Positions 46,301-49,300 of a DNA stretch of 64,000 nt are shown here, piece after piece; positions within the stretch are counted from its first letter, which is position 1, and each line of letters starts with the position of its first letter. Made by a program: the position numbers. This DNA comes from Escherichia coli (GTDB lineage: Bacteria > Pseudomonadota > Gammaproteobacteria > Enterobacterales > Enterobacteriaceae), in assembly GCF_030013205.1 (NCBI RefSeq), contig NZ_CP122648.1; one strand, 5' to 3'.

Positions 46301-49300
46301 TATGGTAAACAGTGGCGCGCCTGGCCAACGCCGGATGGTCGTCATATTGACCAGATCACTACGGTACTGAACCAGCTGAAAAACGACCCGGATTCCCGCC
46401 GCATTATTGTTTCAGCGTGGAACGTAGGCGAACTGGATAAAATGGCGCTGGCACCGTGCCATGCATTCTTCCAGTTCTATGTGGCAGACGGCAAACTCTC
46501 TTGCCAGCTTTATCAGCGCTCCTGTGACGTCTTCCTCGGCCTGCCGTTCAACATTGCCAGCTACGCGTTACTGGTGCATATGATGGCGCAGCAGTGCGAT
46601 CTGGAAGTGGGTGATTTTGTCTGGACCGGTGGCGATACGCACCTGTACAGCAATCATATGGATCAAGCTCATCTGCAATTAAGCCGCGAACCGCGTCCGC
46701 TGCCGAAGTTGATTATCAAACGTAAACCCGAATCCATCTTCGACTACCGTTTCGAAGACTTTGAGATTGAAGGCTACGATCCGCATCCGGGCATTAAAGC
46801 GCCGGTGGCTATCTAATTACGAAACATCCTGCCAGAGCCGACGCCAGTGTGCGTCGGTTTTTTTTACTCTCCGTTAAATTCTTCGAGACGCCTTCCCGAA
46901 ATTTTGCAACGTCCTGCAACGGCGTAAATAGTCCGGAAGATGCGCCGAAGAAATAGAAACTGGCCCTCGTCTTTTTTTCTCCTCGCCCCATACTGCCGGC
47001 ATGAAAACACAACGTGGTTATACGCTGATTGAAACGCTGGTCGCGATGCTGATTTTGGTCATGCTAAGCGCAAGTGGACTCTATGGCTGGCAATATTGGC
47101 AGCAGTCGCAACGGCTTTGGCAAACCGCCAGCCAGGCGCGGGACTATTTGCTCTATTTACGTGAAGATGCCAACTGGCATAACCGCGACCACAGTATCAG
47201 TGTTATCAGGGAGGGGACGTTATGGTGCCTTGTGAGTTCCGTTGCTGGGGCGAATACCTGTCATGGCAGTTCACCATTGGTCTTTGTGCCACGCTGGCCC
47301 GAAGTCGAAATGAGCGATCTGACACCTTCGCTTGCTTTCTTTGGCCTGCGCAATACCGCATGGGCCGGGCATATTCGCTTCAAAAACTCAACGGGCGAGT
47401 GGTGGTTGGTGGTTTCGCCGTGGGGAAGACTCCGGCTTTGTCAGCAAGGAGAAACAGAAGGATGCCTGTAAAAGAGCTAGGTTTTTCTCTGCTGGAAGTG
47501 TTGATTGCTATGGCGATCAGTAGCGTATTGTTGCTGGGGGCAGCACGCTTTCTGCCTGCGTTACAGCGTGAAAGTTTAACGAGCACCCGTAAGCTGGCGC
47601 TGGAAGATGAAATCTGGCTGCGGGTATTTACCGTCGCGAAGCATCTCCAGAGGGCGGGTTATTGTCATGGCAGCTGTACCGGCGAAGGGCTGGAAATTGT
47701 CGGACAGGGTGACTGTGTCATTGTGCAGTGGGATGCGAACAGTAACGGTATCTGGGATCGCGAACCGGTAAAAGAGTCCGACCAGATTGGATTTCGTCTG
47801 AAGGAGCATGTGCTGGAAACGCTACGCGGTGCGACATCCTGTGAAGGTAAGGGCTGGGATAAAGTCACTAATCCGGATGCCATCATTATCGACACTCTTC
47901 AGGTTACCCGACAGGAGGTCAGCGGTTTCTCGCCGGTGTTGACGGTTAGTATGCACGCTGCCAGCAAGGCTGATCCGCAAACCGTGGTGGATGCCAGCTA
48001 TAGCGTGACAGGATCCAACCTGTGAACCGCGAAAAGGGTGTTTCGTCACTGGCTCTGGTCCTGATGCTGCTGATTTTGGGTAGCTTGCTATTGCAAGGAA
48101 TGAGTCAGCAGGATCGCAGTTTTGCCTCTCGCGTGAGCATGGAAAGTCAGTCATTGCGCCGCCAGGCCATCGTTCAGTCGACGCTGGAGTGGGGAAAAAT
48201 GCACTCCTGGCAGACACAGCCCGCAGTTCAGTGCTTACTGTACGCTGCCACCGGTGCCCGGGTTTGTCTGCGTTTATTGGCAGATAATGAAGCCTTATTG
48301 ATTGCCGGTTATGAAGGCGTTTCGTTGTGGCGAACAGGCGAAGTCATCAATGGAAACATTGTTTTTTCGCCACGCGGCTGGAGCGATTTTTGTCCGCTGA
48401 AAGAGAGGGCGTTATGTCAGCTTCCCTGAGGAATCAACAAGGCTTTAGTCTGCCGGAGGTAATGTTGGCGATGGTGTTGATGGTGATGATTGTCACTGCG
48501 TTATCGGGTTTCCAGCGAACATTAATGAACAGTCTTGCCAGCAGAAACCAGTACCAACAGCTCTGGCGGCATGGCTGGCAGCAAACGCAACTGCACGCGA
48601 TTTCGCCACCTGCCAACTGGCAGGTCAACCGAATGCAGACATCGCAAGCGGGATGTGTCAGCATCAGCGTTACGCTAGTTTCACCCGGGGGCAGAGAAGG
48701 CGAGATGACCCGCCTGCATTGCCCGAATCGTCAGTAGTCAGGAGCCGCTATGTTAAGGGTCTACCATTCCAATCGTCTGGACGTGCTGGAAGCGTTGATG
48801 GAGTTTATTGTCGAACGCGAACGGCTGGACGATCCTTTCGAACCAGAGATGATTCTGGTGCAAAGTACCGGTATGGCGCAGTGGCTGCAAATGACCCTGT
48901 CGCAAAAGTTTGGTATTGCGGCAAACATTGATTTTCCGCTGCCAGCGAGCTTTATCTGGGATATGTTCGTCCGGGTGTTACCGGAAATCCCCAAAGAGAG
49001 CGCCTTTAACAAACAGAGCATGAGCTGGAAACTGATGACTCTGTTGCCGCAACTGTTGGAGCGCGAAGACTTTACCCTGTTGCGGCATTATCTGACTGAC
49101 GATAGCGACAAGCGAAAACTGTTCCAGCTTTCTTCAAAAGCGGCGGACCTGTTTGACCAGTATCTGGTCTATCGTCCGGACTGGCTGGCACAGTGGGAAA
49201 CAGGACATTTGGTTGAAGGGCTGGGAGAAGCACAGGCCTGGCAAGCGCCGTTGTGGAAGGCGTTGGTGGAATATACCCATCAACTCGGGCAACCGCGCTG

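Follow-up and report, generated by a model that had tools for sequence, protein, structure and literature searches.

The stretch analysed here (the window, 64 kb of the E. coli chromosome) carries four small genes, ppdA, ppdB, ygdB and ppdC, lying between thyA and recC (Table 1). Genes were called from the list of open reading frames and from RefSeq annotation of an E. coli genome with 100% identity, and both bear out, to the base, the gene identities and the span (47001-48737) given in the initial annotation. From the same sources ppdA and ppdB overlap by 10 nt, ppdB and ygdB by 4 nt, and ygdB and ppdC by 16 nt, while recC begins 12 nt further on, as expected for the compact operon directly 5' of recC that had been described. 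The terminator scan (4 sites observed for 2.5 +/- 1.7 expected) detected none between ppdC and recC, in agreement with the earlier reading of this junction, and within the operon it gave just two weak matches of 3 GC pairs, both in T-rich codons of the hydrophobic N-termini. On the upstream side it picked up a strong terminator behind thyA, whose stem (46834-46861) and T-run are kept across 68 species. The set had also been called an orphan, rightly so: no ATPase, platform, secretin or peptidase gene of a type IV pilus or type II secretion system is annotated in the 64 kb window.

Table 1. Features of the thyA-recC interval, in coordinates of the window.
Feature	Position	Strand	Description
thyA intrinsic terminator	46834..46868	+	11-pair stem with 6 GC pairs, then T8; upstream boundary of the ppd transcription unit
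Distal CRP-S-like site	46879..46900	+	core TTCGA-GACGCC-TTCCC at 46882-46897; conserved block of the 68-species footprint
TTGCA-ACGTCC-TGCAA inverted pair	46904..46919	.	candidate CytR-type operator
Proximal CRP-S-like site	46931..46952	.	core CGGAA-GATGCG-CCGAA at 46934-46949; 52 bp from the distal site; conserved block
CCCTCG(TCT)	46964..46972	+	-35 position of the predicted promoter; T and G invariant, C at least 90% (68 species)
CATACT, -10-like hexamer	46989..46994	+	A2, A4 and T6 invariant in 68/68 species
ppdA	47001..47471	+	minor pilin, 156 aa; leader MKTQRG then YTLIE; GspH/FimU/FimT type; C-terminal GRLR
ppdB	47462..48025	+	minor pilin, 187 aa; leader MPVKELG then FSLLE; probable GspJ/PilW type
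ygdB (DUF2509)	48022..48429	+	GTG start; fourth minor pilin, 135 aa; leader MNREKG then VSSLA, without Glu+5
ppdC	48414..48737	+	minor pilin, 107 aa; leader [10 protein letters not shown] then FSLPE; probable small GspI/PilV type
ppdC-recC junction	48738..48752	+	12-nt gap; recC Shine-Dalgarno AGGAG at 48740-48744; recC ATG at 48750
recC	48750..52118	+	RefSeq annotation; gene 3' of ppdC

All four products carry a class III signal peptide, with an invariant glycine at the cleavage site, and have a predicted pilin fold. The name of the ppd genes, for prepilin peptidase-dependent, goes back to earlier experiments. As features of this class we considered a leader ending in Gly-1, a hydrophobic helix, Glu5, and a score relative to the curated cut-off of the profiles (Pfam PF07963, TIGR02532). 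The prepilin cleavage motif, on which the initial annotation had made its reading depend, was found by careful alignment and is conserved in 79 species. The leaders have 5-12 residues, and Gly-1 is kept in 78/78 species for PpdA, 78/79 for PpdB, and 79/79 for both YgdB and PpdC. Glu+5 is present in 77/78 PpdA, in all 79 PpdB and in 78/79 PpdC sequences, the remaining PpdC having Asp, and in none of the 79 YgdB sequences, which have Ala, Leu or Ser there. All four sequences show a hydrophobic stretch of about 21 residues after the cleavage site, and AlphaFold2 predicts N-terminal helices of about 53-59 residues in each. The Pfam N_methyl profile (PF07963, cut-off 21.2 bits) matches PpdA, PpdB and PpdC with 30.0, 29.2 and 28.8 bits respectively (E 3e-7 to 8e-7), PpdC (8e-7) also matching T2SSppdC (E 1e-30) and PRK10332 (E 1e-64), and the NCBIfam equivalogs gave E 1e-65 to 1e-97. 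YgdB does not match the N_methyl profile and is assigned to DUF2509 (Pfam, E 7e-39). The initial annotation had recognized prepilin-like N-termini in three proteins; this stands for PpdA, PpdB and PpdC, and the number becomes four with YgdB, given its invariant Gly-1, hydrophobic helix and predicted pilin fold. Glu5 is not needed for prepilin processing (PMC4471445).

The unit is tightly overlapped, translationally compact, conserved together with recC across Enterobacteriaceae and under purifying selection. The gene order between thyA and recC was found at 79/79 loci anchored on recC, each from a different Enterobacteriaceae species, and such a four-gene arrangement is far above chance expectation. 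In these species the first junction is an overlap of 10 or 7 nt, the 4-nt overlap is kept in 76/79 and the 16-nt overlap in 73/79; the gap before recC is 12 nt in 68/79 and never exceeds 29 nt. The region is present and intact in 5425 of 5426 complete E. coli genomes. Identity of the window is 100% to swine ETEC strains and 95-99% to nearly all genomes of E. coli, of which just 19/5425 reach at least 99% along this stretch. Compared with K-12, the allele alone differs. An apparently high diversity within E. coli at one locus (L002) is not real; the genome concerned diverges by 5% in thyA as well, and so represents a lineage of its own. With dN/dS values of 0.06-0.20 for the ppd genes, and with conservation, over some 68-79 species, of signal-peptide residues, cysteines, the GRxR motif of PpdA, the gene overlaps and about 120 bp of promoter, it is extremely unlikely that the operon is an evolutionary relic, i.e. 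decaying, unexpressed genes that no longer have a function in E. coli. Such a reading could appeal to the facts that no natural inducing condition is known, that transformation went undetected in K-12 and in ECOR strains (PMC3330819), that no consensus sigma-70 promoter was found, and that inspection of the sequence ahead of ppdA revealed no Shine-Dalgarno; but decaying genes would often be frameshifted or interrupted by stop codons in natural isolates, or would show a dN/dS near 1, and neither was seen.

AlphaFold2 models and annotation together place four pilin folds in a single operon, the nearest solved folds being the type II secretion pseudopilins GspH, GspI, GspJ and GspK. The gene order is H-I-J-K in the secretion set (for which the ETEC GspIJK complex, PDB 3CI0, is solved) and H-J-K-I in ppd. 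Fold-match values, which are reported by type and not by pairing of matched domain and chain, were 11.2 (FimU) and 10.8 (EpsH) for the H type, and 12.0 (TTHA1219) and 8.4 (XcpW) for the J type. They were 5.9-6.6 for the I type and 6.7 for the K type, again with no domain-chain pairing attached. At the sequence level, profile searches with the four proteins gave no Gsp-family match above curated cut-offs. Searches of PDB sequences with single proteins and with ortholog profiles matched PpdA by its N-terminal helix alone (best match PpdD, 6gv9) and PpdB weakly to TTHA1219, and gave nothing for PpdC and YgdB. YgdB is modelled as a helix with a five-strand sheet; at 135 aa it is about half the size of GspK, whose chains have 259-280 residues, and its model is devoid of the large extra capping domain of GspK or PilX. 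Both YgdB and GspK lack Glu5, and YgdB is proposed to occupy the capping position held by GspK/PilX. A linker-fusion AlphaFold2 model of the four proteins had a pTM of 0.69 in spite of three disordered linkers, which is suggestive of a four-protein complex.

These likenesses raise the question of whether the four proteins are pseudopilins of a type II secretion system rather than components of a type IV pilus. The Pfam name T2SSppdC labels the PpdC family in this way, the closest folds are those just mentioned, and PpdA, PpdB, YgdB and PpdC restore assembly of the Klebsiella PulG pseudopilus when pulHIJK is mutated (Cisneros 2012, cited by PMC5131608 and PMC4471445). Nevertheless we regard this assignment as very unlikely. 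Type II secretion operons encode their own gspHIJK. PulG priming is a heterologous complementation, and Gsp pseudopilins serve secretion whereas the ppd proteins serve a pilus: Sxy co-regulates the ppd operon with ppdD and the hof genes (PMC1635313, PMC12616744), the reconstituted E. coli pilus system includes ppdAB-ygdB-ppdC with PpdD and Hof (bioRxiv 10.1101/856302), and the orthologous comNOPQ genes are required for DNA uptake (PMC12616744). The operon also differs from the P. aeruginosa fimU-pilVWXY1E cluster, in having no PilY1 or PilE gene.

The ppdA-ppdB-ygdB-ppdC products are thus very probably the four core minor pilins of the chromosomal type IVa pilus of E. coli, silent until Sxy and cAMP-CRP act and then priming the assembly of PpdD. 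According to PMC12616744, the operon is induced by Sxy (citing Sinha 2009), and induction needs both Sxy and cAMP-CRP (citing Sinha 2009 and Jaskolska & Gerdes 2015). The operon and its molecular role are already known: the genes are annotated in every E. coli genome, with the same order and the same thyA and recC neighbours in K-12 (b2826-b2823, PpdD/HCP type IVa pilus), priming of the PpdD pilus is published, and since the literature identifies the proteins as core minor pilins of this pilus the finding itself is not new. The opinion that their function is still unclear is therefore outdated at the molecular level and holds for the physiological role in E. coli. E. coli retains the complete system for a DNA-uptake pilus, and no one is known to have turned it on by natural means.

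A working model can be drawn from these similarities. The major pilin PpdD, the machine (HofB, HofC and HofMNOPQ) and the prepilin peptidase come from other loci. After cleavage the four proteins would join in the inner membrane via their N-terminal helices, with PpdC as the GspI-like and PpdB as the GspJ-like subunit and YgdB at the cap; YgdB could do without Glu5 because no subunit would lie above it. PpdA, of the GspH/FimU/FimT type, would be the adaptor to PpdD, and the complex would initiate PpdD polymerization and finish at the tip of the pilus; there PpdA may bind the DNA to be taken up through its invariant GRxR motif. This C-terminal motif (GRLR here), on a GspH/FimT fold, does not vary across species and makes PpdA the obvious candidate for the DNA receptor of the enterobacterial pilus, a role that has already been hypothesized (PMC12616744). 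P. aeruginosa has FimU as adaptor and FimT as DNA binder, whereas in E. coli the single GspH-family protein would cover both roles, its DNA binding being putative. A close parallel is H. influenzae comNOPQ (HI0938-HI0941), which shares with ppd four small prepilin-like genes directly 5' of recC, in the same orientation and under CRP-S/Sxy control (PMC1635313, PMC12616744), and in which ComN, with a FimT-like fold, is the counterpart of PpdA (PMC12616744). The two sets are near the limit of detection by sequence, with no BLAST match (PMC1635313) and 18% identity between PpdA and ComN (PMC12616744), and they differ in that comNOPQ is proven necessary in DNA uptake whereas natural competence is not demonstrated in E. 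coli.

The region upstream of ppdA was footprinted in 68 species. A strict CRP-S palindrome, TGCGA-N6-TCGCA with at most 2 mismatches, was not found upstream of ppdA, and its count in the window is at chance level. What precedes the operon is an asymmetric form of the motif TGCGA-N6-T[TC][CG]CA, here TTCGA-N6-TTCCC, which emerged solely from the 68-species footprint. At this distal site other genera have TGCGA-N6-TTCC, the asymmetric consensus that PMC6728893 quotes for CRP-S sites of E. coli. The proximal site reads CTCGT-AACGCC-TCGTA in other genera, near the ppdD site TTCGT-AACGCC-TCGCA, and this region is a pseudo-dyad, since its reverse strand matches the promoter profile; the same part of the profile also matches the CRP-S-type site of rmuC. 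Between the two sites, the exact pattern TTGCA-N6-TGCAA occurs once in the 64 kb window; its second half is retained in 65/68 species, and the spacing between the pair and the distal site is fixed at 22 bp, with 89-91 bp to the ppdA ATG. A sigma-54 promoter at this pair was rejected: the -24/-12 spacing fits, but the obligatory GG is missing in nearly all species. CCCTCG, which is also present at the corresponding position of the ppdD promoter, is a putative promoter element. The ppdA start codon is ATG in every one of the 68 species, and the position of CATACT would make the A of this codon the predicted start of transcription, suggesting as a hypothesis that the ppdA mRNA is leaderless. Another promoter, TTGCAA (-35) with AATAGT (-10), has 8/12 matches, but conservation of the AATAGT block is poor while CAnAcT is invariant, and this promoter is therefore placed behind the leaderless model. 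RNAalifold, applied to 140 nt spanning the promoter and the start, gave zero conserved pairs, so that a 5'-UTR RNA element was dropped as the cause of the conserved blocks.

Comparison of promoters shows that ppdA, ppdD and hofM share a module in which two weak CRP-S sites 52-53 bp apart surround a central TGCAA, an architecture like that of CytR promoters. The distance between CRP-type sites is 52 bp for ppdA and 53 bp for both ppdD and hofM; in the CytR-regulated controls it is 52 bp for udp, 53 bp for deoP2 and 50 bp for cdd, again with TGCAA/TTGCA half-sites in between (CytR box as defined in bioRxiv 10.1101/2023.12.05.570089). In udp, 33 bp separate the first base of the distal site from that of TGCAA, an offset that is identical in ppdA and ppdD, and the element has the same offset in hofM. 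The ppdA layout is conserved in about 65 species. It differs from CytR-regulated promoters in having weak CRP-S sites as its CRP sites and in the position of the proximal site, about -60 relative to the predicted start compared with -41.5. The sharing of this module with ppdD and hofM also argues against assigning the ppd proteins to secretion. The literature searched contains no report of CytR regulation of ppdA or ppdD and no description of the shared module; the ppdA layout may be new. We propose tentatively, and consider rather doubtful, that CytR or another TGCAA-binding factor bridges two CRP dimers at ppdA, ppdD and hofM, with ppdA translated from a leaderless mRNA. If true, expression of pilus and competence genes would be tied to nucleoside availability, CytR being either an anti-activator that keeps these genes silent or a co-activator as in Vibrio competence. 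We know of no reason why Vibrio competence needs CytR, and a CytR-type module in ppdA, ppdD and hofM could explain both this need and the silence of the E. coli pilus.

Transcription from the ppdA promoter probably runs on into recC, and recC is probably the last cistron of the ppd transcription unit. Beyond this, the ppd genes and recC might form one competence and recombination unit, in which Sxy induction raises RecC, and with it RecBCD, upon DNA uptake. We hold this to be possible, although not the likelier outcome, and it would be an extension of the minor pilin role and not a replacement for it. The conservation in 79 species of a 12-nt junction without terminator is consistent with such a unit, as are the similar comNOPQ-recC arrangement in Pasteurellaceae (PMC1635313, PMC12616744) and the listing of the operon as ppdAB-ygdB-ppdC-recC (PMC3936743). 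Likewise, when the last 850 bp (47900-48760) were scanned for a recC promoter inside the unit, no candidate reached 8/12 with a normal spacer. However, RecB and RecD are encoded in a separate ptrA-recB-recD unit, so a surplus of RecC by itself would not raise the amount of holoenzyme. Furthermore, synthesis of RecC is constitutive, giving about 5 molecules per cell (PMC6536506), under conditions in which the ppd promoter is silent, which implies that recC has another promoter.

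The four genes ppdA, ppdB, ygdB and ppdC form an overlapping operon (overlaps of 10, 4 and 16 nt) immediately upstream of recC, as the initial annotation had claimed, and 12 nt separate ppdC from recC, with the recC Shine-Dalgarno sequence AGGAG inside this gap. A consensus scan found a strong terminator directly 3' of thyA, no convincing terminator from ppdA to recC and no consensus sigma-70 promoter. To avoid bias, the first 350 residues of RecC served as the anchor, and 80 loci were fetched from different Enterobacteriaceae species; the order thyA, ppdA, ppdB, ygdB, ppdC, recC is present in all 79 loci with upstream sequence, and in none of these species do the junction lengths leave space for a terminator ahead of recC (Table). 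Outside Escherichia the minor pilins diverge faster than their neighbours (36–77% amino-acid identity, compared with 71–92% for RecC and 89–97% for ThyA), and their dN/dS values are 0.06–0.20 versus 0.01–0.05 for thyA and recC, ratios that place these genes under purifying selection despite their faster evolution. One of the loci, L074 (CACSKA010000005.1), is titled Chryseobacterium sp. 18061 and is a typical enterobacterial thyA-ppd-recC locus, nearly the same as a Citrobacter sp. 18056 record and with a RecC about 80% identical; this record is probably mislabelled or contaminated.

Table. Coordinates and conservation of features of the ppd locus (window positions unless a comparison locus is named). 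Gene coordinates are the RefSeq annotation of a 100%-identical genome shifted onto the window, and agree with the ORF list.
Feature	Position	Strand	Details
thyA	46022-46816	+	
Two-site module, ppdA	46879-46952		Layout in about 65/68 Enterobacteriaceae ppdA promoters
Distal CRP-S-like site			TTCGA-GACGCC-TTCCC in window; TGCGA-N6-TTCC in many genera
TTGCA-N6-TGCAA	46904-46919		Occurs once in window; second half in 65/68 species
Proximal CRP-S-like site	52 bp from distal site		CTCGT-AACGCC-TCGTA in most genera
CCCTCG block	within 46964-47003		Conserved in footprint
CAnAcT	six bases 5' of invariant ATG		-10-like; invariant
ppdA	47001-47471	+	
GRLR motif (GRxR-type)	47424-47435	+	PpdA residues 142-145
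ppdB	47462-48025	+	
ygdB	48022-48429	+	
ppdC	48414-48737	+	
recC	48750-52118	+	
ppdA/ppdB junction	-10 or -7 nt		75/78 species
ppdB/ygdB junction	-4 nt		76/79 species
ygdB/ppdC junction	-16 nt		73/79 species
ppdC-recC junction	+12 nt		68/79 species; maximum 29 nt
Two-site module, K-12 ppdD promoter	L084 737-797		
Two-site module, upstream of hofM	L086 987-1035		Inside mrcA 5' end

Elsewhere the window carries an ETT2 type III secretion remnant followed by housekeeping genes and, after these, recC-ptrA-recB-recD, and no pilus or secretion machine genes are annotated there, in agreement with the description of the operon as lacking an adjacent assembly machine. In the annotation of the identical genome the ETT2 island remnant spans 1-19000, with IS2 and IS1 insertions and several frameshifted or truncated genes (spaN-like, yscQ-like, escU-like, ygeH). 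The window is chromosomal DNA of E. coli. The segment 46500-49200 was found in 5425 of the 5426 complete E. coli genomes, with 100% identity to several swine ETEC strains and 95–99% to nearly all others. The allele of the window is rare, with at least 99% identity in only 19 of the 5425 genomes, mostly swine ETEC or O139 strains. The segment is absent from one genome, one copy is plasmid-borne, and in NZ_CM128602.1 the ppdB-ygdB stretch is broken up over three places.

All four proteins are covered by NCBIfam equivalogs (E 1e-65 to 1e-97). The three prepilin-like N-termini proposed initially correspond to Pfam matches of the N-terminal methylation motif in PpdA, PpdB and PpdC (the latter additionally T2SSppdC), YgdB being DUF2509; this count is, however, probably one short. 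On alignment all four proteins keep the cleavage-site Gly in every or nearly every species (79/79 for YgdB). At position +1, PpdA has Tyr or Phe, PpdB and PpdC have Phe, and YgdB varies, mostly with a hydrophobic residue (Val, Met, Ile, Ala, Leu). Glu+5 is present in 77/78 PpdA, 79/79 PpdB and 78/79 PpdC sequences (plus one Asp), and in YgdB of none of 79 species; the capping pseudopilin GspK is likewise not known to carry Glu5. YgdB is most plausibly a fourth prepilin whose signal is degenerate, since processing depends critically on the Gly and Glu5 is dispensable for it (reviewed in PMC4471445).

The proposed modelling as a minor-pilin tip complex was carried out on the four mature proteins fused by (G4S)5 linkers, with a species-paired alignment from 20 genomes as input. 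In the model the linkers are disordered and the four helix-plus-sheet domains have pLDDT of about 80–90; the pTM of 0.69 exceeds expectation for independently placed domains but is only suggestive of a complex, because the linker method is a hack whose output lacks interface errors. Fold matches (FimU 11.2, EpsH 10.8, GspH 8.8; XcpW, EpsJ and GspJ at 7.7–8.4; FimT 6.6, GspI 5.9), read alongside protein size and motifs, support an H-type assignment for PpdA, J-type for PpdB and I-type for PpdC, with YgdB in the K position; YgdB has no counterpart of GspK's large capping domain. A C-terminal GR[ILV]R motif is nearly invariant in PpdA (77/78 species). This is the GRxR motif with which the competence pilin FimT binds DNA (PMC8897410); its two arginines in PpdA were pointed out earlier (PMC12616744).

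The function of the operon had been called unclear, which holds for its physiological role but not for its molecular function, known from the published minor-pilin role. These genes are the minor pilins of the reconstituted E. coli pilus, along with hofBC, hofMNOPQ and gspO (bioRxiv 10.1101/856302), and PpdAB-YgdB-PpdC are reported to restore assembly of the PulG pseudopilus to a pulHIJK mutant (PMC5131608, PMC4471445). Cameron and Redfield (PMC1635313) regarded them as orthologous to H. influenzae pulG-HI0941 (comNOPQ) from shared recC adjacency, a synteny likewise noted in PMC12616744, and assigned them to the CRP-S/Sxy competence regulon. DNA uptake requires comN, and ppdA is the strongest Sxy-induced gene (PMC12616744); natural transformation of E. 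coli was not obtained even under sxy induction (PMC3330819). ppdAB-ygdB-ppdC-recC is listed as a single operon in PMC3936743. The operon itself is textbook-annotated and has a published molecular role; the initial finding was accurate and its interpretation essentially right. Within the literature searched, only the promoter architecture may go beyond published work.

In a footprint of the thyA-ppdA spacer (68 distinct sequences), nearly the entire 120 bp 5' of the ppdA ATG consists of conserved blocks at fixed spacing. RNAalifold found no conserved RNA pairing in this region; therefore, the constraint acts on DNA. The reverse strand matches the promoter's own profile, making it a pseudo-dyad, and the proximal site of most genera is close to the E. 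coli ppdD site, TTCGT-AACGCC-TCGCA. ppdA has no Shine-Dalgarno sequence, and CAnAcT would set the transcription start at the A of this ATG, predicting a leaderless mRNA and a proximal site near -60. Transcription could instead start from TTGCAA-17-AATAGT (46904/46927), but this promoter is less conserved than the CAnAcT layout, which we favour. In the 850 bp before recC (47900-48760), the search for a sigma-70-like promoter of normal spacer length found none. Because recC is made constitutively even with the ppd promoter silent, its basal transcription would need another promoter.

Searched against an 844 kb background, the ppdA-promoter profile had only two non-self matches at E <=1, the promoter of K-12 ppdD and the sequence 5' of hofM. 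With the three promoters aligned on TGCAA, this element lies 33, 33 and 32 bp from the distal site in ppdA, ppdD and hofM, respectively, and the two sites are 52, 53 and 53 bp apart. Known CytR-regulated promoters of K-12 follow the same plan: the CRP sites are separated by 52 bp in udp (TGCAA offset 33), by 53 bp in deoP2 (TGCAA offset 25, TGTAA offset 33) and by 50 bp in cdd, where TTGCA lies between them. TGCAA/TTGCA is the CytR box (bioRxiv 10.1101/2023.12.05.570089), and Vibrio cholerae competence genes need CytR by an unknown mechanism (PMC4581735). We hypothesize that a factor recognizing TGCAA, with CytR the simplest candidate, sits between two weak CRP-S sites at the pilus promoters. 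CRP-S promoters have been reported to have no common motif beyond the CRP site (PMC1635313, PMC6728893), and the literature searched yielded neither a CytR link to ppdA or ppdD regulation nor a description of the two-site TGCAA module. The sxy promoter lacks TGCAA, so this element is not what confers Sxy dependence. The proximal-site part of the profile also matches TGCGT-AGCGCC-TCGCA upstream of rmuC (L089, the K-12 region between udp and rmuC, 2237-2278). The ppdA, ppdD and rmuC sites share the spacer A/G-A/G-CGCC, and that of the sxy site is similar (AGAGCC), which hints at constraints on the spacers of CRP-S sites.
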